NCBI GenBank assembly: GCA_902779565.1
Contig: CACZCD010000001.1
Location: 3,929 to 67,928, forward strand
Source: an uncultured bacterium
Lineage (GTDB): Bacteria > Verrucomicrobiota > Kiritimatiellia > RFP12 > UBA1067
DNA length: 64,000 bases
Direction of reading: 5' to 3'
Under the pieces are notes generated by a model. The model saw only the letters and a program-made list of their open reading frames with translations. It made no database searches and was not told the origin of the DNA. Position numbers and translations under genes: made by a program. Shown here piece by piece: positions 7,766-41,593 of the stretch (position 1 is its first letter; every line of letters begins with the position of its first letter).

Positions 7766-8833
7766 TTATATCGAGACGACAGTCACCGTCACCGGCGAAG
7801 AGGTGTGATCCGCACCGCCGCTGTGGCGCGTCACCGTGACCGAAACCTCGGAATTGTCCAGTACATCGTCGAGTCCGGTGGGCCACTCGGACTTCAAGTA
7901 CACATCGGTCATCTCGTGTACGCTTCCCCAGACCTCCGCACCGTCCTCGCGGGTGAATTTCACCGACAACTCTGAGCCGTCATACCCGAAGTTGCGCCCA
8001 GAGATCATGACTTCCTCTCCCTTGATGAGCTGCCCCGGTATGGCACCCGCAGCCGTAGAGACGATTGAGGTCACCACCGGTGTCAGATCCGGTCCGGGCG
8101 GGATCGCCGCCGCCTTGACCGTGACCTTGTGCAGAGCCGTGACGAGCGGAGCCGTGGGGTCGAGACCGTGCGAGACGAGCCGCACGTAGTATGTCCCCGC
8201 CGATACCGCCGAGGCGAGCGTGCAGATGATCCGCTGGCCGTCCTCGGTGGAGACCACCGTGATGTCTGCGACCTTGGTCAGTCCGTCCGCCGCAACGAGC
8301 GCAAGGGATTCGTCCTCGCCGTCCGGCACCGTGAGATCGATGCCCGCAATGCGGAACTCCTTCAGTCCGTCGATCAGGCGGTAGGTCTCGGACGCGAGAT
8401 CCATGACAGAACTGATCTTCACGTTGCCGTTCACCGCTTCCACCCCGAGGCTTGTCGGTGCTATGCCGGACACCGCATCGCGGATGTCCTGTGAGAGCGT
8501 CGCGCCGATGTAGAGCGTGTTGCGCGGGGCGCGGAACTCGTCGTCCTCGCTGTCGAACGCCCCGCCAATCATCGGATAGAGCGACACCGCGCCCATGTTG
8601 ATGCGTACGACATCGTCCGCGATCTTCTCGGCGGCAAACTCATAGAACGCGTTCAGGAAGTACTGCGCCGTAGCGCGGGTCATGAACGTGCCCCTGTCGA
8701 GCATCCGCTGGAGGATGTTGTCGTAGGCGAGCGAGCCAATCGGAACGGCCACGCCAAGATACGGAGCCTTCGCCGCCGTCGAAGTGCCGTTACGCACGAG
8801 ACGGTAGCCGACTTTCATTGTCTTCGTTGACAT
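7766..8833 (-). CDS. HU-like DNA-binding domain protein of the Bacteroidetes type (HU fold N-terminus + Ig-like/DUF4469-type C-terminal extension), paralog A
   Basis: 355 aa. It is paralogous to the next gene (RINMGAVSLYPMIGGAFDSEDDEFRAPRNTLYIGATL vs RINLGQLTTGFAIRGAFMSEDEAFDPERHQLIATIRTL). The N-terminal pattern resembles Bacteroides histone-like proteins. Confidence 0.5.
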   Translation of the reverse strand: MSTKTMKVGYRLVRNGTSTAAKAPYLGVAVPIGSLAYDNILQRMLDRGTFMTRATAQYFLNAFYEFAAEKIADDVVRINMGAVSLYPMIGGAFDSEDDEFRAPRNTLYIGATLSQDIRDAVSGIAPTSLGVEAVNGNVKISSVMDLASETYRLIDGLKEFRIAGIDLTVPDGEDESLALVAADGLTKVADITVVSTEDGQRIICTLASAVSAGTYYVRLVSHGLDPTAPLVTALHKVTVKAAAIPPGPDLTPVVTSIVSTAAGAIPGQLIKGEEVMISGRNFGYDGSELSVKFTREDGAEVWGSVHEMTDVYLKSEWPTGLDDVLDNSEVSVTVTRHSGGADHTSSPVTVTVVSI

Positions 8834-10803: not shown

Positions 10804-11634
10804 TTACATCTTTGGCATCGTGTCCTTCATGCCAAGCGCAAGATACTTGGAGCGCGCATAGTCGTAGTACTTGAGATCGACTATGGAATTCTCTGGAATG
10901 CCGATCGAGGCAAGGTAGCGGTGACGTGCAGTGGTGTCCACGCCATCGGTGCAGCCGGGCACAACAAGGCAGCGAACCTCCATCTTCGCCTTCGCCGCGA
11001 CCAGCCGCTCAAGATTCTTCCTGACGATCTTGTTTGAAACTCCCGTGTACTTCATGTGCAACGTATCGTCCTCGGCCTTGTAGTCTGGGAGCCACAGGTC
11101 CGTGACGGGCAGCATCGCGTCAATCGCAGCGGGTGGCGCGTAGAGCGATGTGTCAAGGCATGTATGAAGTCCGGCGGCCTTGAATGCCTTGAACAGCTCC
11201 GCCGCCCATTCCCAGAAGAACAGCGGTTCGCCGCCGGAGAGCGTCACGCCACCGCCCGACTCGTCGTAGAACGCCTTGTCCTCAAGAGCCTTCGCGACGA
11301 TCTCGGGAATCGTCATCGGCTTGCCGTAGAGCTTGAGCGCCCGCGTCGGACACGTTGCCTCGTCCATCGTGCAATGCTCGTGGTGCTTGCACAGGTGCTG
11401 GAACCGCGCCCACTGCGCCTCAGACTTTATCGATTCGGGGTTGTGGCACCAGATGCACTTCAAGGGGCACCCCTTCACGAAGAAGGTCGTGCGGATGCCC
11501 GGCCCGTCCCAGATCGCCATCCGTTTAGTGTCGAGCATCAGCGGCGCCTTAACGGCACGCCCGGCTGCGGACAGCATTGGGCTTACGGCAAACGCTGTCG
11601 AAGATACGATGAAACTCTTGCGCGTTACAGTCAT
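10804..11634 (-). CDS. Glycyl-radical enzyme activating enzyme (radical SAM)
   Basis: WDGPGIRTTFFVKGCPLKCIWCHNPES (CX3CX2C radical-SAM cluster in the GRE-AE context), plus a second Cys cluster CKHHEHC...C. The true start is probably an internal Met (e.g. 11538). Confidence 0.75.
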   Translation of the reverse strand: MTVTRKSFIVSSTAFAVSPMLSAAGRAVKAPLMLDTKRMAIWDGPGIRTTFFVKGCPLKCIWCHNPESIKSEAQWARFQHLCKHHEHCTMDEATCPTRALKLYGKPMTIPEIVAKALEDKAFYDESGGGVTLSGGEPLFFWEWAAELFKAFKAAGLHTCLDTSLYAPPAAIDAMLPVTDLWLPDYKAEDDTLHMKYTGVSNKIVRKNLERLVAAKAKMEVRCLVVPGCTDGVDTTARHRYLASIGIPENSIVDLKYYDYARSKYLALGMKDTMPKM

Positions 11635-11717: not shown

Positions 11718-14700
11718 TCAAGGCAAATATGGACGAATGCAGACGAAATTGACGCCCAGGCGCTCACCCTTGGACGCGGCCTCGTCCGTGATCACGAGTT
11801 CCGTTTCGCCGCGCTCGGCCGCAAACACGACCTGATGCAGGTTGATCCGCCCGTATTTGCCCTTCTTCTTGCTGACCTTCGTGCTGCGGTCAACATATGA
11901 CCAGCTGAGTTCGGGAAGCAACCGCACACCGTCCTTGAAGATGGCCTTAAGCGGAATTTCGCGCGGGTTGGCCTTTCCGGCCTTCATGTCGTCCACATCA
12001 AACGTGGCGTACCTGAGAACGTATGTCCTCCCAGCGACAAGGCCGCAGACCGACTGCGTAAGGTTGTTCGCGGTTTCGCCGCGCTTGAACGAAGCGAAGG
12101 TGTCGCCGCATCCAGTTCTGCCCGCCAGATAACGGTTTTCGGCCCACTCGGCAAGCTTGGGGCATTCGTCAAGCGTCACGTCCCCATGCACCTTCCACGG
12201 CCCGAAAGCGTGCTCGAAATCGCCGTTCCGGAGATGGCCCGGGATGTAGCGCAGACCATACTGCTCCGCAATCGAATCGGTGCGTCCCTCTATGCAGTAG
12301 TGCCGCATCAGGCGGAACGACCAGCGCAGCGTATCGTCATCGGCATGATGGGCGCCCCAGTAACCGGCGGCGACGAGACCATCGCATCGCGGGTCGGTGG
12401 CGAGCGCGTGTATCTGCATCGCGAGATACGCGTTGTAATCGACCTCGGGATGGTGCGCGATCGAAAGCTGCAGAAGCCCCGTGAAGTTCCCACTGACCAC
12501 GCCCAGGCAGTCCTGGCAGAACGGATGCGTATCGCGATACAGCCCCACGCCGACAATCATGGATTCGATGGCCGCAAGCGCCTCAGCCTCCGTCTTTTTC
12601 GTGCGCATATAGCGCTCGTTGAGGAGAAGTCCGCGCCCATGGCCGGCATTCGCAATCGCCGCGAACATCTCGGACTCAATCGGCCGCCGCGTTGGCGACG
12701 CGATCACCCAGGTGCAGACCGTCCGCTCCGTGTCGCGTTCCGCGCAGAACTTCTCGATGGCGTCTATGAACTCCATGTTGGTCTTGTCGTTCTTCGGGCG
12801 GAGTCCCTGTTCGTCGAGCGTGATGCCGTCGCATGCGCGCTGGTTCAGCCCCGTCGATCTGCCGATGTTCCTGCTCATCCTCTCGGCCGTGCCGAGCGTC
12901 CTCACGTTCGCGAGCCACTGCCGCCCGAGGTCGTGCAACCGCCCGATGCTCTCCTTGGGCGCAGGCCCGCCGTTCATCGTCGTCACGCTTGGAACCACGT
13001 AGCGCCAGTAGAAGTCCCAATCGTAGCTCTCCTTGAGCGGCAGCTTGCGCGCGTAGGGGGCATAACAGATGATCATGGGGATCTCGCGCACCGCAATCCG
13101 CCCGGCGCCCTTGACGGCAAGCTGGTGCTCGCCTTGAGAAACAAGCCGCACCGTCTCCAGGGCGGGCGTGCCGTTCGTTATCACGCACTGCCCGTCAAGG
13201 CTTACCTCCGCGCTGTCAGCACCCGACACTCCGATGAACACCCATCCGTGTCTCCGCGTCTCGAACAGAAACTCTCCGGACGTCTCCTCCCCTGGCATTT
13301 TGGCGTCCAGCACCTCGGTCACGTAGTTGTTGAGTCGTTTGCGCCGCTCGGGATGCTTGATCTCCTGCACGGTCTCCACGCCGTACCGATACTTCTTCTC
13401 GTGTATTGCCGTTCCATCGCTGCGGCGCACCAGCGAAACCGTCATACAACCGGAATCGGCATTCTCCGGTAACGTGAAGAACATCTCGTCGCGCACAAGC
13501 GGTGCCCGCAGTTCGCCGCCCCATCCTTCGGAAGATATGAAGACGTCGCAAGTGCTCAGATCGGCGCCGCCCGGCAACTCCCCGAAAAAGCGAAACGAGA
13601 AACGCCGGTCGTCGCTTCTGATCCGCGCAAGCCGGCGGCTCCAAGGCACGAAGCGGGGCTTGCCGTCCACGGATTCGACGGTCCTGTCGGCATCCGAATG
13701 GGCAGTCCAGAATATGGCCGGCCTCAGATCGACATCGCCATCTGCGAGCGTAAACTTCACGTCCTCGAGCTTCACGTTGTCGGCGCAGTCGATGTAGAGG
13801 CCGAATGCCGGCAGGATTGAGGACCCGAAGCTGACCGCAGCATCAGGATACGCTCCCGGCAGCTTCGGCACGGGCTTTTCCATCGCCTCCTTGCTCTTCT
13901 CCTCCCCGGCACCATGGCATGTGATCTTCACGTTCCGCAACGTTACGTTCTTCGCGCGGCATCCGTCAACGCCGGTGATGGAGCTCGCCACAACGCCGTC
14001 CGCCTCGCCCGTCACGTTCTCGATCACGATGTCGCGCAGGATGTAGCTTTTGCCCGGCGACACTCCGGTTGAACGCCCGGTGCGCGTGCCGCCGCGCACG
14101 AATATCGGAACCTTCGCGCCATTCTCAAACGTTATACCGCTGTACCGCACCTGCTCCACCATTCCACCGTCCACGCACTCAACGGAGATGGCCGAGTTGG
14201 CAACGCCGAACGGCGCGCGCTTCGTCGCGCGCCAGAAATACCTGTTCTTCCCGCGATGTTTGGGATTCTTCGAAAGACAGTCGCGCCTCGCGGCCTCGCA
14301 GCGACAGTCTTCGAAGCGGATATTGCGCACCGTGCCGTGGCTGGCCGTGCCTATCTTGAACACGTTGCATTGCGAGCGCCCCACGCAGCGGCGGATCAGG
14401 ACGTTCTCCACGGTGTAGTCTGGGTCGTTGGATTTTATGCAGAACGCATCGTCGCCCGAATCGACATCGCAGTCCTCGATAAGCACGTTCTTCGCCTCGA
14501 TGTCGAACCCGTCGTTGAAGGAATCGGCATGGCTATCGACCTTCACGCGCCGCGCCACAACGTCCTCGCAGCGCTTGAACACGATTCCCCAGCAGGCCGC
14601 GTCGCGCAGGGTGAAATCCTCCAGACGCACCCCCTTGCAGTCCCCGAAGAACAGTCCGCGTGCGTTCAGGCCCTCGCGGCAACCCTTGACGTCCTTCGGG

Positions 14701-15065
14701 CGCTGCGGCCAGCTGAAGCCGTCGCCAAACACCGTCCCCGGCCCCGTGACCGCAACGTTCGTGGCGCAGAGCGCGAACACCACCGCGCTCCACGTCCCCT
14801 CGGAACACGGAAGTTCGGTTACGCGGTAGTCCTTGATGTTCGCAGACCCTTGCAGAACTGCGCCTTCGGCAAGATGCAGCTCCACATTGCTCTTGAGGTC
14901 AAGCTGTCCCACAAGATGCCGCCCGGCCGGCACAACCACCCGTCCACCGCCAGCCGCGTTCGCCGCATCGATCGCGGTCTGCCAGCGCGCGGTTTCGAAA
15001 CCATCTGCAAAAGCGGCCAGCTTGATTGCGCCGGCCGCCGCTACGCAAAATGCACGCAACATCAC
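11718..15065 (-). CDS. Large secreted multidomain glycoside hydrolase with an N-terminal GH28 (pectin-lyase-fold) domain
   Basis: 1115 aa with a signal peptide. GH28 motifs: SGDDAFCIKS (GDD catalytic) and GTASHG (GHG). A long uncharacterised C-terminal region follows. Confidence 0.7.
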   Translation of the reverse strand: MMLRAFCVAAAGAIKLAAFADGFETARWQTAIDAANAAGGGRVVVPAGRHLVGQLDLKSNVELHLAEGAVLQGSANIKDYRVTELPCSEGTWSAVVFALCATNVAVTGPGTVFGDGFSWPQRPKDVKGCREGLNARGLFFGDCKGVRLEDFTLRDAACWGIVFKRCEDVVARRVKVDSHADSFNDGFDIEAKNVLIEDCDVDSGDDAFCIKSNDPDYTVENVLIRRCVGRSQCNVFKIGTASHGTVRNIRFEDCRCEAARRDCLSKNPKHRGKNRYFWRATKRAPFGVANSAISVECVDGGMVEQVRYSGITFENGAKVPIFVRGGTRTGRSTGVSPGKSYILRDIVIENVTGEADGVVASSITGVDGCRAKNVTLRNVKITCHGAGEEKSKEAMEKPVPKLPGAYPDAAVSFGSSILPAFGLYIDCADNVKLEDVKFTLADGDVDLRPAIFWTAHSDADRTVESVDGKPRFVPWSRRLARIRSDDRRFSFRFFGELPGGADLSTCDVFISSEGWGGELRAPLVRDEMFFTLPENADSGCMTVSLVRRSDGTAIHEKKYRYGVETVQEIKHPERRKRLNNYVTEVLDAKMPGEETSGEFLFETRRHGWVFIGVSGADSAEVSLDGQCVITNGTPALETVRLVSQGEHQLAVKGAGRIAVREIPMIICYAPYARKLPLKESYDWDFYWRYVVPSVTTMNGGPAPKESIGRLHDLGRQWLANVRTLGTAERMSRNIGRSTGLNQRACDGITLDEQGLRPKNDKTNMEFIDAIEKFCAERDTERTVCTWVIASPTRRPIESEMFAAIANAGHGRGLLLNERYMRTKKTEAEALAAIESMIVGVGLYRDTHPFCQDCLGVVSGNFTGLLQLSIAHHPEVDYNAYLAMQIHALATDPRCDGLVAAGYWGAHHADDDTLRWSFRLMRHYCIEGRTDSIAEQYGLRYIPGHLRNGDFEHAFGPWKVHGDVTLDECPKLAEWAENRYLAGRTGCGDTFASFKRGETANNLTQSVCGLVAGRTYVLRYATFDVDDMKAGKANPREIPLKAIFKDGVRLLPELSWSYVDRSTKVSKKKGKYGRINLHQVVFAAERGETELVITDEAASKGERLGVNFVCIRPYLP

Positions 15066-16402
15066 TCAATGCTCCCCATGCAGACGAGACGCACACCGTG
15101 CGTCTCGCTTCTATACGTCGGAGAGCCGTTCCCACGCGAAGCAGACCTGCATAAAGAAGCCGCACTTCCGTAGTAACCTCCACGCACAACGCGCATAGAT
15201 GAAGTGCCACGCCGCGGAGACTGGCCATCGTCGGAGACGTTTGCCGCTCCGTTGAGGCTGGAGCAGTCGTCCACATAGTAGTCGTGGCACCATTCCCCCA
15301 AGTTGCCATGCATATCGTAGAGTCCCCAACTATTCTTGCCGTACGACCCGACAGCCGCAGTTGCGTTGTTGGTGGTGCAGAACCTGTCGGGAGCGTCCGT
15401 ACCGTTCACAAGCCCGCCGTTGTACTTGTACCGCCCTGGCAGATTGGAATCTTCTTCCGCATTAGAGTACGGAGTGCCGTCGCCCCATTTGCCTTCGCCG
15501 TTGCCGGCGCGGCAAGCGAATTCCCACTGCGCTTCCGTGGGCATGTCGAAGTCTATGCTTGTCCGCTTGCGAATCATTCCGAGAAATGAATTCTTATGTG
15601 GTGCTTGGGGCCAGTAGGTGGTCTTGTCTGGTTGCACCTGGCTGGTAGTCACCCACCCGGAACACCTGATCTCGGTATAGGCAACGCGATCTACCGGACG
15701 CATTGCTTTGTATGCCTCGTTCGTGTATATGCTGGGGCACTTCCCCATCACGTGATACCATTGCGTCTGGGTCACGGGGAATACGCCGATGTAGTAGTCG
15801 TTCGAGAGCGTCACGAGATGCGGAATTTCGTTTGCCGAGTTGCGCCCAGCCTCGTTGACGCTGCCCATGGTCCACTCCACGTTCTTCGCGTGGATGCGGC
15901 GCATGACCATCTTCGTGGTGCGGTAGTCGTCGTTGCCAAGAAGGCCGCCGGGAAGGAACTCCTCGGACGGATAGTACGCCTGCGTATTTGTCGATACGGT
16001 TGTGATATCCACCACCATGTAGTCCGGCGGCGCGTTCGTCTCCCAGGCCGTGAGAACGGCGCGGATGTTGTTCGCGGGAACCCTGTGTCCCGGCCACGAG
16101 AGGTCGGGCCGCCATTTGATGGAGTAGCGCGACTTGCCGCCAACGATACGGAACACGTCGCTGTCCTCGGTGAAGTTCTGGATGTGTTCGCCGCCGATCG
16201 ACACCCATCCGTTCGCGCCGTTCGTCTGCACGTCAAGCGTCACCACCGCCGGAGACTGCGTGAGTGAATACTCGATGGTTACCGTTCGCCTGACTTGCCG
16301 CACCGTCATGTCTGTGACCTCAGGAAGGTCCGCAATTCCGGAGACGGCGGCGCACGCCGTAATTGCCGCCGCGAATGCCATTTTCATCTTCTGTGCTTTC
16401 AT
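15062..16402 (-). CDS. FGE-sulfatase (SUMF1/EgtB/PvdO) domain protein with N-terminal signal peptide and extra N-terminal domain
   Basis: The C-terminal half ...WEFACRAGNGEGKWGDG...RVVRGGYYGSAASLCRSASRG...HGVRLVC matches the formylglycine-generating-enzyme-like fold. ATGA overlap with the GH28 gene. Confidence 0.65.
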   Translation of the reverse strand: MKAQKMKMAFAAAITACAAVSGIADLPEVTDMTVRQVRRTVTIEYSLTQSPAVVTLDVQTNGANGWVSIGGEHIQNFTEDSDVFRIVGGKSRYSIKWRPDLSWPGHRVPANNIRAVLTAWETNAPPDYMVVDITTVSTNTQAYYPSEEFLPGGLLGNDDYRTTKMVMRRIHAKNVEWTMGSVNEAGRNSANEIPHLVTLSNDYYIGVFPVTQTQWYHVMGKCPSIYTNEAYKAMRPVDRVAYTEIRCSGWVTTSQVQPDKTTYWPQAPHKNSFLGMIRKRTSIDFDMPTEAQWEFACRAGNGEGKWGDGTPYSNAEEDSNLPGRYKYNGGLVNGTDAPDRFCTTNNATAAVGSYGKNSWGLYDMHGNLGEWCHDYYVDDCSSLNGAANVSDDGQSPRRGTSSMRVVRGGYYGSAASLCRSASRGNGSPTYRSETHGVRLVCMGSIE

Positions 16403-16423: not shown

Positions 16424-16621
16424 TTACCTGATGCAGACCGAAATTCCACGGAAGAGCCCGTCGCTGTTAAAGTCGAATCCGGAGACCGCCGTTTCCGTGC
16501 AGTATCTGGTATCAAGCTCGAAACCGAACAAAGCCACGCCTGGCATCACCACGTCGTCTGACGCGGTGGAGGCCGCCATCAATGCCGCCGTTGCGGCAAG
16601 AACTGCAATCTTCTTCATCAT
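16424..16621 (-). CDS. Small secreted protein (65 aa)
   Basis: MMKKIAVLAATAALMAASTASDD... signal peptide. Its ATG overlaps the stop of the upstream gene (ATGA). The ORF-track start at 16846 is over-extended. Confidence 0.35.
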   Translation of the reverse strand: MMKKIAVLAATAALMAASTASDDVVMPGVALFGFELDTRYCTETAVSGFDFNSDGLFRGISVCIR

Positions 16622-17685
16622 GCTCTCTCCTTTTGTTTTAATGCTTCTGCGAAAAGATCTATACCCTTGAGGTTGAAGTCGAGGTTCGCCTGCGAACAGC
16701 AGTTGGCCCATGGGGCCATGAGAAAACCGAGGAGGTGTTCGCTCAATATGTGCTTGCGGCAGTACGGCACGAGCGCGCCGATGATGTCGTCGCCGCCGGT
16801 CTTCTGCCGTTTGCGCGCACCGGCGCCCGCCCAGTTCGTGCCGCACGGTATCTGGTCGAAGCCAGCCTTCTCAAGCGCATCGAACGCAGCAAGGCGGTGC
16901 GCGTGCCTGTTGATCTTCGGATCGAGCGACCATTGTCCGAGCTGTTCGTCGTAGTACCAGTTGGACTGCACCACGCTTCTCGGGCAGCGCGTGAAGAACT
17001 CCTCGTGCTCCCAGCCGAAATCACTCCACACCCAGGCGCGCGAGCCAAGCTCCTCCACGCAGCCGACGGTGTAGAGGAAATCGCGCCACCACATGTCGCC
17101 CTGGCGCATGACGAAGTAGTCGCGCCCAGGCGCAAAAAGCGCAGTCTCCTCGTCCCAGCCGAGGTGGAAGAAGCGAGGACGCGAGAAGATCTCCGAAACG
17201 TCACGGATGACGTCTTTGGCCACAATATACCATTCCGGCAGCGTCAACATCCTATGATAATCCTTAAGCCAGCCGTCGTGCGTAGCGGAGAAGTTCAGCT
17301 TCGGGATCGGCTCAAGGCCTGCGGTCCTTAGGCGCTCCACCTCCGCGCGAAGCTTCTCCGCCGACCAGCTGCCCTCAATCGCCAGCTCGGGATGGCTGGG
17401 ATAGATGAGACCCTCGCCGATATCAATCACGATCATGTTGAGATTGCGCTCAACCATCCTATCCGTCACGCGCCGCCAAAGTTCTTCCTTGCATCGAAGG
17501 TTCAGGTCTGGAGTCAGGCGTTTCGGCAGGGAATGCCAAAGATGGCGCGGCAGCCACTCGCCCCACATGTTGTGGCCAAGATGCATCAGCATGGCGCGGA
17601 TGGGTTCCTTCCCGCCTGCATAAGCACCGCCCGCCCCGCGCGTTCCGCGCGAGGCATCGGTGTTGCTATTGATGTCAGTTGCCAT
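16618..17685 (-). CDS. GH20-like (beta-hexosaminidase-fold TIM barrel) protein, family assignment tentative
   Basis: NLNMIVIDIGEGLIY ... EPIPKLNFSATHDGW ... FFHLGWDEE resembles the GH20 catalytic-domain pattern (PEID.PGH ... HIGGDE), with WDEE in place of GGDE. Confidence 0.4.
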   Translation of the reverse strand: MATDINSNTDASRGTRGAGGAYAGGKEPIRAMLMHLGHNMWGEWLPRHLWHSLPKRLTPDLNLRCKEELWRRVTDRMVERNLNMIVIDIGEGLIYPSHPELAIEGSWSAEKLRAEVERLRTAGLEPIPKLNFSATHDGWLKDYHRMLTLPEWYIVAKDVIRDVSEIFSRPRFFHLGWDEETALFAPGRDYFVMRQGDMWWRDFLYTVGCVEELGSRAWVWSDFGWEHEEFFTRCPRSVVQSNWYYDEQLGQWSLDPKINRHAHRLAAFDALEKAGFDQIPCGTNWAGAGARKRQKTGGDDIIGALVPYCRKHILSEHLLGFLMAPWANCCSQANLDFNLKGIDLFAEALKQKERA

Positions 17686-17820: not shown

Positions 17821-20229
17821 TCACCATCCCTTCATCACGTTTTCTGCACGGCGGATGTAGGCATCCTGTTCGGCCTTGCACATATCATTCCACCGCACGT
17901 TCCATCCGCAAATACGAACCTGTAGATTCTCGTATTTTTCGGGGTGCGCCTGGGCATCACGGAGCATCTCTGCACTGAACACGGTGAACTGGATCACGCC
18001 GCCACCGTTTCGGTGGAACATCTGAACGAGCGCACGCATGGCCGCCAGCCCCTTTTCACCCTGAACGACTGACGGATGAAGTAATACGTCAAGCGGATAG
18101 TCGCTTGGTAGCTTCTCCGCCGAAGAAGAAGCCAGGGTCGCAACGAGCGCCGTGGCACCCTCTGTATCGGCTCCCATCGTAGGAGAAAGGTTCTTCGAGA
18201 GTTCATCGCCCTTTTTGCGTCCGTCAGGTGACGCGGGCGTCTTCTTCCCGAGCTCAATGAAGCGCCGCGAGGAATGCCCGCTCGCCAGAAAGATCCCGCC
18301 ACGAGAATTGGGGATGCCATTCAGGTTGGAAGCGAATACATCGATTATCTCTGCGCCCAATGCGTTGGACTCCGGGTCGTTGTTGCCCCACTTCCGCTTT
18401 GAGCGTAGCATCCTCAGGCGCAGCGCCTCATGTCCTTCCCAATCTGATGCCATGATTTCGCCAAGTACGGCCAGCGACTTTTCACGCTTTTCATAGACAA
18501 TCTCCTTCACGGCCAGCAACGCATCCACCGAACTGCCAAGGCCTAACGCGCGCAGCGTGGTATCATTGCCGCGCGGGCACCCCGTTGCAAATCCATCCTG
18601 ACGGGTCTTCAGGGCGTAATCGGTCGCCAACGTCATGCAGATGGCGGGGTTGACCTCAGATAGGGCCTTTTCAATCTCGTACACGATCTTGCGGCTCCTT
18701 GTCGTGTTTTGGGCGACCCGTTTCATGTACTCCGACCGAAACACCTCGAATGTACCCCAATCGGCTGAAGGCGCGCCCTTCCGCGCCTCGTCCAGCATTT
18801 GCACCACAGGGAAGAGCAAGTTCAGGTTCACGGTGTCTGTCGTGTTCAGGCTGTCCGCCAAGCCAAATTCATAGCACCCGCGCACGGCCATGGTACGGCA
18901 GTCTTCGTCGCTTGCGTTTTTCCACCGCTTGAGTACCTTTGAAGCCGACTCCTCGCCAAGGAACGCCACGGAACGCCGCCGCCGCGCCATGTCGAGCAGT
19001 TTCGCCCACGCCCAATCCGGCGTGTTTCCGCCCACCTTCACGATGAACTTGGGTGAGGTGAGGTTGAGCTCATCGACGACATCAAGAATGATGCGCGAGA
19101 CCTCCCCGAATTCGCTGGAACCATCCTGTTTCGTGCCGCCCAGGCCCGCGGGCTGTGCATAGTAGTTCGCGGCGGAACCCCACTGCCAGAGGAAGTGCTT
19201 GATCTGCTCGCGGAATTCCGCCTCGGTCGTGCGCCCCACCGCAATGTCGGAAACATAGTAGGGCGCAAGGAACACATCCAGCTCCGTGAGTGAACGGCAC
19301 TGGATGCCATCGAGGTGTTCCGACCAGAAGAAATAAAGCCACACAAACATCAACATGTCGTAGGCCGTCTGCGGCGGGCCGTTCCGCAGACGCTCCAGAC
19401 AAGCAATTTCCTTTTTAAGACGATCCTTACCATTTGCAATTTTGATTCTTGAACAATTGAGGCAATTGTCATTTGTGAACAATTGCAGTTGTTTCCTCCC
19501 CTGTTCGACAAAACGATCTATTCCGACGAGCATTGCATCCATCGCGATGCGGCATGACTCGCAGAACGGATCGTCTTTCACAGCATACTTCTCCAGACGC
19601 GCCTTCATACCCGGGAATCCGAGCGCGAGGATTACGCGCCAGTCGGGAACGGAATGGTCGAAATCCCGCCACATGAGCCAACGTCCTTCGGCATTGCCGT
19701 CATGCCACTCTTTCCAGGCCCAACTCGGAAGCGTCCTGTTCACTTCGCCATGCCGATGCTTGCCAGCAGAACGGATGGGGCGATTCCAGCGATCCCACAC
19801 GGCTATTGCCGGGAACCAGTCGAAGGGCGACACATCTATAGATTGCCGCTCGATCTGGGCGGCAAAGCATTTCGCCTTCGTGACGCGCCAAGACTCATTT
19901 GCCGACTTGCCCTTGGCGACGATCACTGCCAATAGTTCCTTAAGGGCATCCGTGCCCAATCCCGTCGTCCTGTCAGTAACATCCTGACGGAATTTTCGGC
20001 GCAGATACGTGTCCATATCCGTGATGTTCGCGACATATGGATCCCACCAAGTGATGTCTTCGACACATCTACGCTTTGGCACGACTACTTCATCCCCAAC
20101 CGTGGATGGGGCGGCAACGCCCATCGACAGGACCGCCGCACAGACTGCCGATAGCAGATGCCGTATAAGACACTTGTCTTTCATTGCTCCTCCCATCACT
20201 TCTTCACCACAGGATTGGAACCAGCCCAC
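17821..20229 (-). CDS. Glycyl radical enzyme (PFL-like, dehydratase/lyase GCxE subclass), substrate unknown
   Basis: The C-terminal glycyl-radical domain ...MLRDAQAHPEKYENLQVRICGWNVRWNDMCKAEQDAYIRRAEN aligns with the GRE consensus ...LLDAQKHPEKY..L.VRVSGYSA.F..L....QDDII.R. An internal MAVRGCYEFG fits the GC[VLM]E thiyl-radical loop, and 802 aa is typical. The N-terminal ~70 aa (hydrophobic, signal-like) are probably not part of the mature enzyme; an alternative start is MDTYLRRKF. Confidence 0.75.
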   Translation of the reverse strand: MGWFQSCGEEVMGGAMKDKCLIRHLLSAVCAAVLSMGVAAPSTVGDEVVVPKRRCVEDITWWDPYVANITDMDTYLRRKFRQDVTDRTTGLGTDALKELLAVIVAKGKSANESWRVTKAKCFAAQIERQSIDVSPFDWFPAIAVWDRWNRPIRSAGKHRHGEVNRTLPSWAWKEWHDGNAEGRWLMWRDFDHSVPDWRVILALGFPGMKARLEKYAVKDDPFCESCRIAMDAMLVGIDRFVEQGRKQLQLFTNDNCLNCSRIKIANGKDRLKKEIACLERLRNGPPQTAYDMLMFVWLYFFWSEHLDGIQCRSLTELDVFLAPYYVSDIAVGRTTEAEFREQIKHFLWQWGSAANYYAQPAGLGGTKQDGSSEFGEVSRIILDVVDELNLTSPKFIVKVGGNTPDWAWAKLLDMARRRRSVAFLGEESASKVLKRWKNASDEDCRTMAVRGCYEFGLADSLNTTDTVNLNLLFPVVQMLDEARKGAPSADWGTFEVFRSEYMKRVAQNTTRSRKIVYEIEKALSEVNPAICMTLATDYALKTRQDGFATGCPRGNDTTLRALGLGSSVDALLAVKEIVYEKREKSLAVLGEIMASDWEGHEALRLRMLRSKRKWGNNDPESNALGAEIIDVFASNLNGIPNSRGGIFLASGHSSRRFIELGKKTPASPDGRKKGDELSKNLSPTMGADTEGATALVATLASSSAEKLPSDYPLDVLLHPSVVQGEKGLAAMRALVQMFHRNGGGVIQFTVFSAEMLRDAQAHPEKYENLQVRICGWNVRWNDMCKAEQDAYIRRAENVMKGW

Positions 20230-20511: not shown

Positions 20512-21585
20512 TCAGACTTTCAACTCCGATCCTGAGTCGCCGTCTCGTATGTATTTTACGCTACGCCCCTCTCCAACCTTGCGGACAGCACCGTTCTTGA
20601 CAAGCGAGCCAAGCACGGCTTCAACGGTCGTGGGGCTTACGTCTGGCAATGCACGGCAGATGTCGACCTTTGAGATAGGCGTCAGCGCATTGAGGACGAT
20701 GCTTTTGATCCGGGCCGACTTCGTTACGCGGCCCGTGCTCACTACGGCAAAGCGCCGGTCTAGTTCCTCGTAGCATCCATAAAGCGTCATCAGAAAATTG
20801 ACCATGAACGGGAACGGGCTGTTTTCGTTTGTCTGCCATCCTGCCGACGAATCGCGAAGTGCCGCATAATAGGCGGCCTTGTCTGCGTTGATGCGCTGCT
20901 CGAATGAAATGTACTTGCCGGCGTCGAAACCGTTCCTGTAGAGAAGCAGCAGCGTCAGCAGACGGCTCATGCGTCCGTTGCCGTCGGGGAACGGATGGAT
21001 GCAAAGGAAGTCAAGTATCACGCAAGGAATCAACAGCATCTTGTTTATCTCGACGTCGTCACGGGCCTCCATGTATGCGAGGACAAGCTGCTTCATCGCC
21101 TCCGGCGTCTCCTCCGCGCTTGCAGGGGAAAATCGCACCACGCGCCGGCCGTCTGACATGCGCTCGGCAATCACGTTATCCTCATGCTTGTATCCTGGCT
21201 CCACATCTGACGCCACATAGCGGAGCAGCATTCCGTAGAATCCAATGATGTCTGATTCGGTGAAGTCATGTAGCCGGTAGTTCAGGTGGATTTCGTTCAG
21301 GGCATCACGATAGCCGGAAATCTCCGCTTCAGTATGGTTCATGGGGGATGTCCCCTCCTGCATCAGCTCGGCAAGTCGAGCATCGGTGGTGACAATCCCT
21401 TCAATCGCGTTCGATGCCTTGACGGACTCGATCTTCGCTATGCGCTCCAGCTCCGAATATGCGTGCATAAACCTAACTTTGCGTTCAGCCGACAGCACAC
21501 GAAGAGCTGCGATGCTGCTCGTCAAGTTCACCAGTTTTGCCGGCAGCAAGTCGTTTTTCAGGTACGAATAGTCAAAGATGTGCAT
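20512..21585 (-). CDS. Fic/DOC family protein (AMPylator-type)
   Basis: Canonical Fic motif HPFPDGNGRMSRLLTLLLL. Start chosen at MHIFDYSYL (21585), preceded by AAGGAG. It lies in locally AT-rich DNA. Confidence 0.85.
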   Translation of the reverse strand: MHIFDYSYLKNDLLPAKLVNLTSSIAALRVLSAERKVRFMHAYSELERIAKIESVKASNAIEGIVTTDARLAELMQEGTSPMNHTEAEISGYRDALNEIHLNYRLHDFTESDIIGFYGMLLRYVASDVEPGYKHEDNVIAERMSDGRRVVRFSPASAEETPEAMKQLVLAYMEARDDVEINKMLLIPCVILDFLCIHPFPDGNGRMSRLLTLLLLYRNGFDAGKYISFEQRINADKAAYYAALRDSSAGWQTNENSPFPFMVNFLMTLYGCYEELDRRFAVVSTGRVTKSARIKSIVLNALTPISKVDICRALPDVSPTTVEAVLGSLVKNGAVRKVGEGRSVKYIRDGDSGSELKV

Positions 21586-21710
21586 AGTTTCTCCTTTTGT
21601 GAATAATATTATACCACCTTTTATGCACAAAAACAACAGCTCATGCATAAACATCTTATCTTTAATATGCAGATATGATGCTATACACGGGGAAACACAT
21701 AATTGACCTC

Positions 21711-21792: not shown

Positions 21793-22584
21793 ATGACACT
21801 ACGCGAAAGGAAGAAACTGCAACGCGACTTCTTTGAAGCCGCCGGCCCGAACACGGCCGCGTTCCGTGCACTGATTGATACGATTCCCGATGCGTGCTTC
21901 TACATGAAGGACTTGAACTGCCGCATCATGGCGCTCAACAAACGCAACTGCGAAGTGTGCAACATCAAAAACGAGCTGGATGTGGTGGGGATGCGTTCGG
22001 ACGAAGTTTTCACCCCTGCCGACGCCGAAAGCTTCATGGAACTCGACCTCGAAGTGCAAAGAACCAGAAAGCCAGCACTGAATCGCGTCGAAACGCATCC
22101 TGCCGACAAGTCACCAGGATTCACAATCGCCAGCGTCTATCCGGTCAAGAACAGATTTGGCGACATAATCGGCACCATGCGCCTGTACAGGGTATTCACG
22201 TCACACGACAATATGCCCGAATGGCATGGGCGGATGAAAGCCGTGGTAGCCTACATACAGGAACACTATGCGGAAGAAATCTCCCTTGATGAGCTGGCCA
22301 AGCTGACGGGCAGCTCGGTAAGCCAGTTCAAGCGCATCTTCACGAAGACGCTTGAGATGTCGCCCGGAAGATATATCGTCAACACCCGGATCAACGCCGC
22401 CCGCAAGCTACTGGAGACCACAGACAAGCTCGTCTCTGACATCGCGCAGGAAGTCGGCTTCTATGACCAAAGTCACATGACGCGGGCGTTCAAGACGATT
22501 CGCAGCACCACGCCCGGCGAATACCGCCGCAAGCACCGCTCCATTACGGCCAACAACTCATCCGCACCCAAACGCAAATCCTAA
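21793..22584 (+). CDS. AraC family transcriptional regulator with N-terminal PAS-like sensor domain
   Basis: C-terminal ...YIQEHYAEEISLDELAKLTGSSVSQFKRIFTKTLEMSPGRYIVNTRINAARKLLETTDKLVSDIAQEVGFYDQSHMTRAFK is a canonical AraC dual HTH. Confidence 0.8.
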   Translation: MTLRERKKLQRDFFEAAGPNTAAFRALIDTIPDACFYMKDLNCRIMALNKRNCEVCNIKNELDVVGMRSDEVFTPADAESFMELDLEVQRTRKPALNRVETHPADKSPGFTIASVYPVKNRFGDIIGTMRLYRVFTSHDNMPEWHGRMKAVVAYIQEHYAEEISLDELAKLTGSSVSQFKRIFTKTLEMSPGRYIVNTRINAARKLLETTDKLVSDIAQEVGFYDQSHMTRAFKTIRSTTPGEYRRKHRSITANNSSAPKRKS

Positions 22585-25434: not shown

Positions 25435-26571
25435 TCAGATAACACCTTTGATGTACCGTTCCTTCACCGTGCGCCAAAGCACCAGGCAGAACGCCGAAAG
25501 CGGGATGGCGAGCAGGAGCCCCAGGAGCGACTTGAACACCGCGCTCCAGAACAGGAACGAGAAGATCACGCCCGCAAAGCCAAGTCCTGTGCGCTGGCCC
25601 TGGATGAGCGGCGTGATGGCATAGCCGTCCGCGATCTGGCCGGCCGCCCATACGCTCGACACACCGATGAGCCGCAACAGACTGCCACCATCGCCGAAGA
25701 AGGCGAGCAGGAGCGCAAGCGGAAGGCAGATTACAGTACCGAGGAGCGGCACAAGGTTGATCGCTCCCAGCGCAAAGCCGATCACGAAGCCGTAGGGCAG
25801 CCCCACGAGAACGAATCCGAGGCCGTAGAGCACGCCTTCCACAAGGCAGATGATCACCTGCCGCTGGAAAAAGGAGACGATGATGTCCGTGAACGTATCG
25901 ATCTGATCCGCCACAAACCCGCGCGTCTCCTCCTTCAGGAACGGCATCTGCCGCACACAGTCCTCGCCGCGCAGCGCCGGCTTCATCAGGAAGTACACGA
26001 AGAAGATCATCGTCACAACCCACCCGACAAGACCCATGAGGTACTTCACCACACTGAAGCTCACCTTCACCGCCTTTCCGCCGTACTGCGCGCCGAGCTG
26101 GGAGAGGATATCGTGCGAGAACTGCGCGGGATCCGTGAAGAACAGAAGCGCGGAGTCCGGCACGCCGAGCTTCACAAGCCCCGCATGAAGCCCCGGATGC
26201 TGGGCCTGGAACCATTCGCTCGCGCGCGTCACAATCGTTGGCGCAGCGGTGATGAAGGCCGAGAGCTGCTCGATCAGCATCGCGCCCGTGAGCCACAGCA
26301 CGAGACCCGCCGGCACAAGGACCGTGAGGGACATCGCCACCAGCGCCAGGGTCGGGTTGTGCAACCGCTTCAGGAACCATCCGTAGTACGGCTTGAAGAA
26401 CATCGAAAGGAGCAATCCCATGATGACCGGTGTCAGCGCGGGCGCCGTCAGGTTCAGGAGCTTCAACACAAACCAGCCAATACCGAGCGCAAAGGCGACC
26501 ACCAGCGCCACCGCCAGAGACGTGACGCCCGCCGCCGCCCATTTCTTCTGCCGATTGCTCAAGTCAATCAC
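25435..26571 (-). CDS. AI-2E family transporter (PerM/UPF0118)
   Basis: 378 aa, about 8 TM segments, with the typical AI-2E topology and conserved segments. Confidence 0.7.
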   Translation of the reverse strand: MIDLSNRQKKWAAAGVTSLAVALVVAFALGIGWFVLKLLNLTAPALTPVIMGLLLSMFFKPYYGWFLKRLHNPTLALVAMSLTVLVPAGLVLWLTGAMLIEQLSAFITAAPTIVTRASEWFQAQHPGLHAGLVKLGVPDSALLFFTDPAQFSHDILSQLGAQYGGKAVKVSFSVVKYLMGLVGWVVTMIFFVYFLMKPALRGEDCVRQMPFLKEETRGFVADQIDTFTDIIVSFFQRQVIICLVEGVLYGLGFVLVGLPYGFVIGFALGAINLVPLLGTVICLPLALLLAFFGDGGSLLRLIGVSSVWAAGQIADGYAITPLIQGQRTGLGFAGVIFSFLFWSAVFKSLLGLLLAIPLSAFCLVLWRTVKERYIKGVI

Positions 26572-28046
26572 GATGCGCCTCCCTTCGTTTGCTCGCCGCC
26601 GCGGAAATCCAGAAGATGCCCCAGCAGCGAACGGATTCCACGATAGTAGAACGAAAAATCAAAAAGCGTCCGGGTGGAGGTCAGCCGCCGCCAAAGCGCC
26701 GCCGGCTGCAGGAACCCGCGATAGACCTCGCGGATCGCGCACTTGATCTCATCCTCCGTGACAAGCGGCGTCTTGGTGATCGCGCGCCGCATGTCATACT
26801 CGTCCCAGTCAAGCGTCGTGAGACCGTCCGCCGCCGCCAGCTCCTTGAAGAGCGGCGTGCCGGGATAGGGGATCGTGAGCGTACACTGGAGCGTCGAGGC
26901 CCAGCCTTTCGCCAACATCCGCCGCGCGAGGGCCACCGTGTTCGCGATCTCCGCCTTGCCTTCCCAGGCGTGCCCGAACATGAACGTAAGATGCACGTCC
27001 AGCCCCGCCTCGCTCGCCCACTGCGCGCCCTGCTCCACGTCCTCGACCTTGAGCGCTTTCACGAAGCGGTCGAGCGTGTACTGATTGGCGCTCTCCACGC
27101 CAAAGAGCACCAGACGGAAGCCCGCCTTGCGCATCAGCCGGTAGTCCTCGGACGTCAACCGCCCGAACCGCATGTTGCAGTCGATGCGGACCTTGCGGTT
27201 CAGCCCCCGCTTGATCATCTCGTCGCAGAAGATCTTCAGGAATCCGCCCACCGGAAAGGAGCCGGAGTCGTCCATGATCTCCTTCACGCCGTACGTCTTC
27301 ACGAGGTGTTCAATCTCGTTCACCACGTCGTAGGGGTCGCGCGTGCGGTAGGTCGGATAAAGCGTCGTCCAACTGCAGAAGGTGCACTTCGCGTGCCAGC
27401 AGTCGCGACCAGACATGATGTAGGTGCCGGGCGTGCGGCGGAAGTTTCCGTTCTTGGTCGCGTAGAGCTTCCACTTGCACAGGTCACGGTCGATCCACGG
27501 CGTCTTCTTGAGATCGTGGTTGAGCTGGAAGCGTCCCGTGTTCTGGACGTCGCCCTTCTCACCCCGGTACCAGATGCCGGGCTCATATTGGGAAGCCTCG
27601 CCCGCCGCCGCCAACAGGTTCATCAGGAGAAAATCCCAATCGCCGCCCGTGAGGATGAAATCGACGGGGCATTTCTCCATCGTCTCCTCCGGCATCGCCG
27701 TCACATGATCGCCGACGAGGATGTATTTGGACGTTGCGAGTTGCTGCTTCTGGTCGGCGATCCACTTCCAATGGCGCTTGACGACGGGCGTCTTCGTTTC
27801 AACAACAACATAATCTGGGGCAAACTCGCGAAGCCGACGGTCGAACTCATCGGGCATCAGCTCCTCCGCGATGCCATCAAGCCACAGGACATCATGTCCT
27901 GCGGCTTTGAGCATCGTTGCGGCCGTCCCCGGCACCACCGGAAAGATGTAGGTGGGCCGGGAGAACCACTGGAACTGCCGGTTCTGCGAAAGGAGCGGCA
28001 CGCCCTTCTCGCTCGGCAGCGGCGGATAGCAGATCGCGACTTTCAT
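26568..28046 (-). CDS. B12-binding domain radical SAM protein (class B rSAM), function unknown
   Basis: N-terminal Rossmann-like B12-binding region (MKVAICYPPLPS...GHDVLWLDG), radical-SAM core with HAKCTFCSW, 492 aa. ATGA overlap with the AI-2E gene. Confidence 0.7.
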   Translation of the reverse strand: MKVAICYPPLPSEKGVPLLSQNRQFQWFSRPTYIFPVVPGTAATMLKAAGHDVLWLDGIAEELMPDEFDRRLREFAPDYVVVETKTPVVKRHWKWIADQKQQLATSKYILVGDHVTAMPEETMEKCPVDFILTGGDWDFLLMNLLAAAGEASQYEPGIWYRGEKGDVQNTGRFQLNHDLKKTPWIDRDLCKWKLYATKNGNFRRTPGTYIMSGRDCWHAKCTFCSWTTLYPTYRTRDPYDVVNEIEHLVKTYGVKEIMDDSGSFPVGGFLKIFCDEMIKRGLNRKVRIDCNMRFGRLTSEDYRLMRKAGFRLVLFGVESANQYTLDRFVKALKVEDVEQGAQWASEAGLDVHLTFMFGHAWEGKAEIANTVALARRMLAKGWASTLQCTLTIPYPGTPLFKELAAADGLTTLDWDEYDMRRAITKTPLVTEDEIKCAIREVYRGFLQPAALWRRLTSTRTLFDFSFYYRGIRSLLGHLLDFRGGEQTKGGAS

Positions 28047-32274: not shown

Positions 32275-33183
32275 TCAGCCGCAGCTGATCGTTGTCGTGA
32301 CCGCCTTGCGGTAGCCGGTCACGGCGATGGCGCCGGAGGGATAGATCTCCGCGAGCGCGTAGCTGTTCTCCTCTTCTCCGGCGTTCAGGACAAGGCCGCG
32401 AAGAGAATAGTACGTGATGCCCTTGATGATATCAATCAGCCCAGAGTGCTGATGGCCCGTGAACACCGCCTTCACCTTGCCGCTCTTCTCAATCACTTCT
32501 CGCACCGCCGCCGCGTTCTTGACGATGTGCTGGGGCTCGGCGGCAGAGCAGAGGCACTGATGGCAGAATATGACAACCCGTCCGGGCGCAGCGGCCAGTT
32601 CCTTCTGGAGCCAGGCAATCTCCTCCGGCGGCACATTGGCGTTGTTCCATGGATTGTTGCAGCTGTACGGTTTCATCGCCGAGTCGAAGCAGGCGTTCAT
32701 CACGATGAACGTCACGCCACCCCTCACGAAGGTGTAGTAACCGGTCTTGGACACCTTCCCGTCATTCGGCACGCGCGAGAAAAACTCTTCTGTCGTAAGG
32801 CAATCGAAGTCGTGGTTGCCGGCCACATGGTAGCGCGGCCCCTTGAAGCCGCTGAAAACCGTCTCGATCTTTTCGAGATAGCCGAGGGTCGCCGCCTTGG
32901 TCGGGCCCAGATCCTTGAAGTCCCCCAACTCGATCATGAAGTCCGGCCGCTCCCGGTTCATCACCGCCACGCATTCGGCAAGCTTCTTCGCCGACTCGCT
33001 GTAGGCGGCGTCACCAACCGGATAGGCGCGCTTCGCGTAAGGAATCTCCGCATAGTGGCAATCCGTTACCATGCCGAACCGCACCACGGGCTTCTCGCCC
33101 GGCTTCGGCAGCGAACAGCCGGCCAGCGTCACCGCCGAGAACATCCCGAACCCTTCAATGAAAAACCTGCGTGAACATTCCAT
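32275..33183 (-). CDS. Tat-exported calcineurin-like metallophosphoesterase
   Basis: Twin-arginine motif SRRFFIEGFG, then GDFKD ... GNHDFD metallophosphatase motifs. Confidence 0.65.
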   Translation of the reverse strand: MECSRRFFIEGFGMFSAVTLAGCSLPKPGEKPVVRFGMVTDCHYAEIPYAKRAYPVGDAAYSESAKKLAECVAVMNRERPDFMIELGDFKDLGPTKAATLGYLEKIETVFSGFKGPRYHVAGNHDFDCLTTEEFFSRVPNDGKVSKTGYYTFVRGGVTFIVMNACFDSAMKPYSCNNPWNNANVPPEEIAWLQKELAAAPGRVVIFCHQCLCSAAEPQHIVKNAAAVREVIEKSGKVKAVFTGHQHSGLIDIIKGITYYSLRGLVLNAGEEENSYALAEIYPSGAIAVTGYRKAVTTTISCG

Positions 33184-33297
33184 GGACTTCTTTCCTTTCT
33201 TTGTCTGGTATTCCTCCATTGCCCTATATTATAACATACGATCCGCTCTTCGGGAAACCCGACGAACGGATCGCAGATTGGCCAGTTTAAAACACCG

Positions 33298-39663: not shown

Positions 39664-39759
39664 GCACGCTATTATACAGAAATGCCGCCCGTCAGGCAAT
39701 GGCCTCCCACGCGCTATATGTTGACCTTATTCCCCGGCTGTCAACACTGTTGTGGGGTT

Positions 39760-41526: not shown

Positions 41527-41593
41527 TGTGTACGCATTCCTTTCTTTTGTTGTGGTCGCGATTTTACCACATCCGCCCCGCCCGTTCAACAGG

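Follow-up and report, generated by a model that had tools for sequence, protein, structure and literature searches.

The window analysed here, a stretch of 64,000 nucleotides from the genome of an uncultured Kiritimatiellia bacterium, carries a gene for a glycyl radical enzyme (GRE) at the head of a cluster of five genes on one strand. In order, these encode the GRE, a GH20-like protein, an FGE-like protein, a GH28-like protein and a GRE-activating radical S-adenosylmethionine (SAM) enzyme. To our knowledge, GREs and the radical-SAM enzymes that activate them are regarded as strictly confined to the cytoplasm or to microcompartments; in this cluster, both the enzyme and its activase begin with peptides that resemble export signals. 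The parts of these two genes that matter most for the analysis are listed below. The evidence includes AlphaFold2 (AF2) models with their per-residue confidence (pLDDT) and the ratio of nonsynonymous to synonymous differences (pN/pS).

17821..20184, reverse strand: GRE coding sequence, 787 residues plus stop; type-1 member of the putatively exported Kiritimatiellae branch of the CGWN/GCYE clade (Pfam, gene call, AF2, Foldseek).
20185..20229, reverse strand: in-frame upstream extension of the open reading frame (ORF) to GTG 20229, probably untranslated; contains GGGAGGAG; the gene caller starts at 20184.
20113..20184, reverse strand: Sec-type signal-peptide-like GRE leader MKDKCLIRHLLSAVCAAVLSMGVA, residues 1-24, putative cleavage between VA and AP (sequence; disordered in the model; equivalent leaders in homologues).
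20017..20112, reverse strand: conserved, poorly ordered N-terminal tail of the putative mature GRE (APSTVGDEVVVPKRRCVEDITWWDPYVANITD), found in the type-1 clade with candidate export signals only (invariant residues; pLDDT 41-66; pN/pS 0.33).
18865..18882, reverse strand: Cys loop RGCYEF with predicted catalytic Cys437 and Glu439 (C-x-E, eliminase class), aligned to GCVE of PFL2 and HypD.
17896..17916, reverse strand: glycyl radical loop RICGWNV with predicted radical site Gly760 (conservation, 105 sequences).
10804..11634, reverse strand: GRE-activating radical-SAM enzyme, 276 residues, last gene of the cluster (Pfam Radical_SAM and Fer4_12; motifs DGPGIRT and CPLKCIWC).
11563..11634, reverse strand: Tat-like activase leader MTVTRKSFIVSSTAFAVSPMLSAA, conserved in 116 of 120 homologues.
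11446..11469, reverse strand: radical-SAM cluster motif CPLKCIWC (CX3CX2C), intact in 115 of the 116 activase ORFs in the loci compared.

A GRE Outside the Characterized Families

The window GRE matched the Pfam families PFL-like (PF02901, E=4.3e-46) and Gly_radical (PF01228, E=8.4e-19), and its AF2 model, built on 105 sequences, had a mean pLDDT of 92.1 and a predicted template modeling (TM) score of 0.91. The two Pfam matches cover the ten-stranded barrel and the C-terminal glycine radical domain, whose loop conforms to the superfamily pattern R-[IV]-x-G-[YFW]. Foldseek matched the model to GRE eliminases at TM scores of 0.75-0.83 and 16-21% identity; the best sequence matches in the PDB were A. 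fulgidus PFL2 (2f3o) and HypD (6vxc), both at E ~1e-43. All curated NCBIfam cut-offs were missed by wide intervals: the protein scored 201.5 bits against the 678.2 required for TIGR01774, 179 against 1100 for HypD, 123 against 1050 for CutC, and 129 against 1000 for sulfopropanediol dehydratase. We compared it with propanediol dehydratase (5i2g), HypD, the 1,5-anhydromannitol-6-phosphate dehydratase PflD (8id0/8yjo), CutC and glycerol dehydratase (1r8w). It shares with these eliminases the fold of the whole chain, the C-terminal glycyl radical domain, the Cys-x-Glu motif and a dedicated radical-SAM activase, and by structural alignment is about equally distant from all of them. It differs in having CGWN instead of AGY or SGY, a GCYE Cys loop, a signal-peptide-like leader and relatives fused to carbohydrate-active enzymes (CAZymes).

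Conservation was assessed over the same 105 sequences, which reach down to 26% identity. G436 and C437 of the Cys loop are invariant, with Y438 and E439 conserved at 90% or more; in the glycyl loop, R757, G760 and W761 are invariant and C759 and N762 reach at least 90%. Because GCYE aligns to the GCVE of PFL2 and HypD, the thiyl residue (Cys437) and general base (Glu439) of the eliminase class are predicted to be present. An earlier note on this DNA, made from the sequence alone, had read the glycyl loop as RICGWNV, the string that does lie at 17896-17916, and had taken it to be rare and to mark a distinct clade. Comparison of glycyl loops favored the distinct clade: the best-matching solved GREs read RVAGYS, none of the solved GREs matched has CGW, and PFL2 of A. 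fulgidus shares the Trp alone. The supposed rarity did not hold, since R[VI]CGWN occurs in all 120 close homologues and CGWN in 106 of ~133 representative clusters (50% identity, readable loop), usually together with GCYE. The combination of R-[VIL]-C-G-W-N and G-C-Y-E is the signature of a large, uncharacterized GRE clade. As judged from sequence, the window GRE itself is catalytically complete, carries eliminase-class residues and falls outside every characterized family.

A Signal-Peptide-Like Leader on the GRE

The longest ORF at this position runs from 17821 to 20229 on the reverse strand (802 residues, GTG start) with the N-terminus MGWFQSCGEEVMGGAMKDKCLIRHLLSAVCAAVLSMGVAAP / MGWFQSCGEEVMGGAMKDKCLIRH. 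The likely translation start is the ATG at 20184 (MKDKCLIRH...): a Shine-Dalgarno-like sequence, GGGAGGAG, occupies 20187-20194, 4 nt 5' of this codon, and the gene caller used on the source contig (European Nucleotide Archive ERZ28614400, scaffold_761) placed the start at the same base, giving the 787-residue product. GTG 20229 and ATG 20195 are less likely starts. The hydrophobic leader is retained with every candidate, which bears out the earlier note's observation that the longest ORF opens like a secreted protein. By inspection, the leader has the layout of a Sec signal peptide (basic n-region, hydrophobic h-region of 10-15 residues, small residues at -3/-1): the basic n-region MKDKCLIRH is followed by a 14-residue h-region, LLSAVCAAVLSMGV, by G-V-A ahead of the putative cleavage site and A-P behind it, and then by an acidic/neutral spacer, STVGDEVVVP. 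In the AF2 model, residues 1-35 have pLDDT values below 50 and the fold begins at about residue 50.

We then compared 120 close homologues with 66-81% identity to the window GRE; wherever a source name was given, it was a Kiritimatiellae 'hypothetical protein'. A leader of the form M..T-R-[RK]-x-F-[LI]-x-G, with a short Ala/Gly/Ser-rich h-region and A-x-A, as in signals of the twin-arginine translocation (Tat) pathway, was present in 71 of the 120, and strongly hydrophobic, Sec-like leaders in another 17. Many seemingly short N-termini reflect start calls that fall within the h-region; in P0099, for instance, TTRRALIGG precedes the called Met. The h-regions comprise 12-18 uncharged residues and end in small -3/-1 sites, and in most type-1 proteins (the window type, see below) a basic ARKQR follows directly. 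The nearest relatives of the window GRE (80-81% identity) have Tat-like leaders whereas its own is Sec-like, indicating rapid leader turnover.

Behind the leader, homologues share the tail consensus AP.RKQRNY.D.TWWDPYV.NITD.DTYLRRKF. The earlier note had suggested that the true start might be the inner Met of MDTYLRRKF. We rejected this candidate: the Met is replaced by V, E, S or T in nearly all homologues, and upstream of it W46, D48, P49, V51 and I54 (within TWWDPYV.NITD) are invariant at the protein level. In a codon-level comparison, pN/pS fell from 0.56 in the leader to 0.33 in the tail and 0.26 in the core, as would be expected if the leader were a translated signal peptide under loose constraint. 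The leader of the window GRE is thus genuine and not a start-codon artefact. The note's second thought, an unusual leader, fared better: the leader is a family trait, occurs also on the activase, and is replaced in some relatives by a signal peptide plus a CAZyme domain. Its premise that a signal peptide is implausible on a GRE is challenged by these data, with export itself read from sequence.

The TWWDPYV.NITD segment (20017-20112) is invariant in type-1 proteins, yet has pLDDT values of only 41-66; it might serve to dock the activase, a partner or the export machinery.

A Tat-Like Leader on the Activase

The window activase begins with MTVTRKSFIVSSTAFAVSPMLSAAGRAVKAP, which contains the motif T-R-K-S-F-I, to be compared with the twin-arginine consensus [ST]-R-R-x-F-L-K. 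The 116 homologues that share this leader come from a set of 120 with 86-100% identity; 107 of them have RK and nine RR. Profiles of known activase families match the window protein only from about residue 33, so the leader lies beyond the N-terminus of all of these families. Its pN/pS is 0.47, compared to 0.20 for the core, and its insertions and deletions comprise whole codons only. In type-2 loci the activase motif is N-R-R-A-F. A leaderless version also exists: in several loci the activase begins with MKTPLMLD, exactly where the mature protein is predicted to begin, and stop codons directly precede this start. One locus, L028, has both versions, the leaderless copy being on the other strand. 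The leader-bearing copy at L028 (6457-7284) reads CPLRRIWC, with the second Cys of CX3CX2C changed to Arg, the sole such case among 116 ORFs; the change may reflect a sequencing error, or this copy may be inactive.

Among the GRE and activase homologues examined (P0001-P0240), RK also prevails in GRE leaders (62 RK, 9 RR). RK is a weaker variant of the Tat motif, and in E. coli Tat mutagenesis RK variants are reportedly exported more slowly. Since Lys and Arg codons are one transition apart and synonymous sites are near saturation, Lys looks selected; its retention may represent attenuated or dual targeting. Two metallophosphoesterases in the window have canonical RR leaders: that at 39760-41589 (reverse strand) begins MRTTRRTFLGG..., and that at 32275-33219 (reverse strand) begins MECSRRFFIEG... 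and continues with a lipobox-like AGCS. Within the 64-kb window, no tat genes were identified; Sec, Tat and type II secretion have all been reported for the cultured Kiritimatiella glycovorans (PMC5148204).

The Leaders of GREs and Activases Are Coupled in One Direction

To compare the two proteins across loci, we counted unique adjacent GRE-activase pairs and classified their leaders by hand from the sequences. Sec-type GREs stood beside a leader-bearing activase in 12 pairs and beside a leaderless one in none (13 pairs if the GH78 fusion in L097 is included; the window cluster fits as well). Tat-type GREs were paired with leader-bearing activases in four loci (L089, L090, L091 and L108) and with leaderless activases in seven, while the three leaderless GREs were divided between one leader-bearing (L116) and two leaderless activases. 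Sec and non-Sec GREs differ in this respect (Fisher's test, p=7e-4; the lineages are related and not independent), and we take the coupling as consistent with the export reading and not as proof of it. A two-way rule, in which the type of GRE leader and the presence of an activase leader would each predict the other, was tried and abandoned because L089-L091 combine a Tat-type GRE with a leader-bearing activase.

The one-way rule has a possible rationale. Sec threads a GRE unfolded, so that no radical can be carried across and an activase would be needed outside; as an Fe-S protein, the activase would have to use Tat. Conversely, a GRE routed through Tat can be activated before export.

Paralogues and CAZyme Fusions in Herbivore-Gut Kiritimatiellae

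A scan of GTDB species genomes yielded at least 571 GRE-related stretches. Kiritimatiellae homologues with 41-81% identity to the window GRE number in the hundreds and have Tat-like leaders, Sec-like leaders or a signal peptide joined to a CAZyme. Those in the 41-72% range come from Kiritimatiellae-type metagenome-assembled genomes (MAGs) of the rumen and hindgut (variously labelled) and are mostly leader-bearing or fused. At 35-40% identity, orthologues occur in Lentisphaeria/Victivallales (including the cultured Oligosphaera ethanolica), Phycisphaerae and Oscillospiraceae; these are leaderless and start at about residue 57 of the window protein. Around the Lentisphaeria orthologues, no conservation was seen beyond the GRE-activase pair, and no clue to substrate. 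In a neighbor-joining tree of the locus-encoded homologues (which excludes the window copy, and in which two outgroup 'Sec' labels are apparently artefacts of translated upstream DNA), forms with candidate export signals make up a nested clade, and Tat-type type-1 proteins are nested inside Sec-type groups.

Kiritimatiellae-type MAGs contain at least three paralogous GRE types, often in tandem. Type 1 is that of the window; type 2 has a Sec leader and then a GRGESWMPKPPAPPP linker; type 3 has a short hydrophobic leader, ...LSTGVEIPEGG. Up to three paralogues of different types, all with candidate export signals, lie in tandem in one locus (L011, ORFs starting at 7766, 10254 and 13401; L033/L046, which are one contig), an arrangement that suggests a varied set of enzymes sharing one activase. 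A fourth type with ~27% identity, bearing TRKSFIAG or RRDFIVG leaders, was seen in the same Kiritimatiellae loci (L032:10142-12556, L144 and L148); Pfam confirmed PFL-like and Gly_radical domains in the L032 copy.

In relatives with 31-69% identity, the GRE is preceded by a signal peptide and a CE7 acetyl-xylan esterase (twice), a SASA esterase, or a DUF1080 (3-keto-disaccharide hydrolase) domain. Other fusions involve a GH2 mannosidase-like domain, a GH78 rhamnosidase (twice, independently), GH43, GH5 and a tannase/feruloyl esterase. Several recur on multiple independent contigs, and the GRE loops are intact wherever the C-terminus is present. The fusions lie among CAZyme genes and PAS-AraC regulators that resemble the one at 21793-22584 of the window.

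Genes Accompanying the GRE and Its Activase

The remaining members of the window cluster, and the regulator upstream of it, are as follows.

16618..17685, reverse strand: GH20-like TIM-barrel glycosidase, 355 residues, directly downstream of the GRE; no Pfam match (AF2 pLDDT 88; Foldseek GH20, TM ~0.57-0.61).
15062..16402, reverse strand: FGE-sulfatase-domain protein with N-terminal signal peptide MKAQKMKMAFAAAITACAAVSG (Pfam PF03781, E=6.5e-32).
11718..15065, reverse strand: GH28-like (pectinase-fold) protein, 1115 residues, hydrophobic N-terminus (Pfam PF00295, E=1e-22).
21793..22584, forward strand: PAS-AraC regulator, encoded on the opposite strand upstream of the cluster (Pfam PAS_4 and HTH_18).

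The GH20-like family has an invariant H-x-G-x-D-E-E motif. Tat-type leaders occur in 95 of 120 relatives (94 RR, 1 RK), about half of which have a lipobox-like Cys; in the window copy and the two relatives closest to it, the N-terminus (MATDINSNTDASRGTRGAGG...) is instead non-hydrophobic and disordered. The PAS-AraC architecture also occurs beside GRE genes in L088 and L089, and a similar N-terminus in L042. A scan of the cluster for promoters and terminators gave matches at chance level, which neither supports nor contradicts an operon.

An Exported GRE System?

Together, these results indicate that the Kiritimatiellae branch of the CGWN/GCYE clade may constitute a GRE system that is exported and acts on the products of plant glycans, a reading that we regard as evenly balanced between right and wrong. 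Under this reading, the cluster from the GRE to the activase would be transcribed, perhaps under PAS-AraC control. The GRE precursor would be exported unfolded by Sec through its 24-residue signal peptide and fold in the periplasm, and the activase would acquire its [4Fe-4S] cluster in the cytoplasm and then cross the membrane folded by means of its T-R-K leader. Outside the cytoplasm, the activase would install a radical on Gly760. More speculatively, this radical would pass to Cys437 as a thiyl, which would abstract a substrate hydrogen, with Glu439 as the base of a 1,2-elimination (dehydration or C-O cleavage); the substrate might be a sugar or oligosaccharide freed from plant cell-wall glycans by the neighboring or fused CAZymes. 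In sister lineages, the combination of a Tat-type GRE with a leaderless activase would fit cytoplasmic activation followed by export of the folded, radical-bearing enzyme.

A more specific version of this proposal, which we think less likely than not, is offered tentatively. It envisages extracytoplasmic, SAM-dependent glycyl radical chemistry, in which a Sec-exported GRE, free or fused to glycosidases or esterases, receives its radical in the periplasm from a Tat-exported activase (possibly single-turnover and preloaded with SAM) and performs radical C-O cleavage or dehydration of plant cell-wall glycans, as an anaerobic counterpart of lytic polysaccharide monooxygenases (LPMOs) in rumen and hindgut Kiritimatiellae.

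Several observations weigh against export of both partners or counsel caution. Activation of a GRE requires SAM and a low-potential electron donor, and oxygen destroys the glycyl radical. No SAM carrier, flavodoxin or ferredoxin was seen near the GRE or activase genes in the window and the annotated neighborhoods, so that periplasmic activation would be without a known supply of SAM and electrons; a search for such genes beside GRE-activase pairs returned only CAZymes, esterases, a metallo-beta-lactamase-fold protein and an SMP-30-like protein. The Tat profile TIGR01409 (TAT_signal_seq) scored 13-13.9 bits, below its cut-off of 16.7, on three RR GRE leaders and did not match RK leaders, although a control RR metallophosphoesterase from the window was missed as well, which makes these scores uninformative and not a negative result. 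The R-K of the GRE and activase leaders is unlike the R-R of Tat leaders elsewhere in these organisms, as in the GH20-like family, and the window GH20-like protein itself is without a leader. Some members of the GRE family are truly leaderless (L018, L029 and L116), and the Tat-type GREs beside leader-bearing activases in L089-L091 reduce the pairing of leaders to a one-directional rule. Lastly, aligned to Lentisphaeria activases, those of Kiritimatiellae are without 26 residues of the ferredoxin-like insert that holds the auxiliary clusters, and many have C-x2-H-x2-C in place of C-x2-C-x2-C, which suggests that they hold at most one auxiliary cluster, possibly altered.

Part of this difficulty would vanish if the radical were installed in the cytoplasm and Tat then exported the folded GRE, or a complex of GRE and activase, with a single leader serving as the ticket and the activase carried along or exported spent. 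Such hitchhiker export of partner subunits is known for DmsAB and for the small and large subunits of [NiFe] hydrogenases. Like these cofactor enzymes, the activase combines Fe-S with a [ST]-R-R/K-x-F leader, and one leader may serve a complex; the motif here, however, is mostly R-K, whereas other Tat leaders of the same organisms have R-R. Activation before export needs no periplasmic SAM or reductant and accommodates both the seven loci with Tat-type GREs beside leaderless activases and the leaderless GRE beside a leader-bearing activase in L116; given the reportedly slower export of RK variants, R-K could even delay export until activation is complete. It would require the Sec-like GRE leaders to be Tat-compatible or secondary, yet R-R/R-K-x-F is missing from the strongly hydrophobic leaders of the window GRE and of the type-2 and type-3 paralogues, and the CAZyme fusions open with classical Sec signal peptides. 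Leaders on both partners in L089-L091 also speak against it, as does the presence of both activase types in L028, which suggests two distinct sites of action. We consider this explanation doubtful.

It is unlikely that the leaders are translated without the catalytic domains being exported, whether as tethers to the cytoplasmic face of the membrane or as Tat-like remnants recognized by a maturation chaperone (as in NarG), leaving the GRE cytoplasmic. The atypical R-K motif, the sub-threshold Tat scores and the basic ARKQR behind most type-1 h-regions would all be accounted for, and only the cytoplasm is known to supply both SAM and low-potential electrons. Against this, the h-regions are short for a transmembrane helix and end in small -3/-1 sites, Sec-like and Tat-like leaders interchange inside one orthologous group, the window copy has the acidic/neutral STVGDEVVVP after its cleavage site, and in the fusions the GRE lies C-terminal to secreted-type CAZyme domains behind signal peptides.

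That the exported GRE domain forms no radical and is a pseudo-enzyme or binding module, to which the activase leader is unrelated, would dispose of a radical formed outside the cytoplasm by no known route; we judge it very unlikely in view of the invariance of G760, C437, R757 and W761, the conservation of E439, the intact loops of the fusions, the presence in most loci of an activase next to the GRE or within its cluster, and the core pN/pS of 0.26. An annotation artefact can practically be dismissed: high-GC genomes do yield long spurious upstream extensions, and the GTG start of the longest ORF is probably one, but an untranslated leader ahead of MDTYLRRKF is contradicted by the unconserved Met, by invariant upstream residues under purifying selection, by the Shine-Dalgarno-like sequence before ATG 20184 and by leaders in hundreds of homologues. 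Targeting to a bacterial microcompartment, where GREs and sometimes activases carry N-terminal targeting extensions, has a likelihood close to nil, because no shell-protein families occur in the window or any annotated neighborhood and the leaders are n-h-c signal peptides (R-[RK]-x-F or a plain hydrophobic core), not an amphipathic helix with a linker.

Relation to Known Systems

Among 8 million papers and preprints, our search turned up none that describes a GRE or radical-SAM enzyme as exported, periplasmic or Tat-dependent, and nothing on GREs of Kiritimatiellae. The leaderless CGWN/GCYE GREs (such as that of Oligosphaera ethanolica DSM 24202, L058) share the signature loops and length class of the window GRE, and in many of their loci an activase gene follows the GRE gene. 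They start with M..F.QD..YL..KF, have neither leader nor TWWDPYV.NITD-like tail (TWWDP), and are likewise uncharacterized; their activases are ~300 residues long, leaderless, and contain the full two-cluster ferredoxin-like insert. The choline and propanediol microcompartment loci have N-terminal localization extensions on the GRE, and sometimes on the activase, in common with the window system, and differ from it in having encapsulation helices and shell genes in place of signal peptides. The analogy with LPMOs is functional only: these are secreted redox/radical enzymes that attack recalcitrant glycans alongside CAZyme modules or as fusions with them, whereas their fold is unrelated and they depend on copper and O2/H2O2, and the action of a GRE on glycans is a proposal only. 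To judge by its candidate export signals and CAZyme fusions, the window GRE system is set apart from all GRE systems described.

A large and abundant family in herbivore-gut Kiritimatiellae is thus at odds with the cytoplasmic picture of GREs, with export signals on enzyme and activase alike and repeated fusion to CAZymes. Should export prove real, radical enzymology would take place in the periplasm or beyond the cell, and anaerobic plant-fiber degradation would gain a new catalytic class, with a bearing on rumen feed conversion and on CAZyme classification. It would also raise the question of how an exported radical-SAM enzyme obtains SAM and reducing power, or whether Tat lets a radical-bearing protein through. 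The family itself offers a testable comparison, between a Sec-type GRE with an exported activase and a Tat-type GRE with a cytoplasmic one.

Other Genes in the Window

Between the GRE cluster and the PAS-AraC gene lies a gene for a Fic-domain protein (20512-21654, reverse strand), in the stretch of lowest GC content in the window (0.51, compared to ~0.61); it is present on the source contig too. A 492-residue B12-binding radical-SAM protein (26568-28046, reverse strand), unrelated to the GRE activase, adjoins an AI-2E-family transporter (25435-26571). Finally, 33793-39699 (reverse strand) encodes a 1968-residue homologue of bacterial alpha-2-macroglobulins (MG2, A2M and bMG10 domains) with a signal-like N-terminus.

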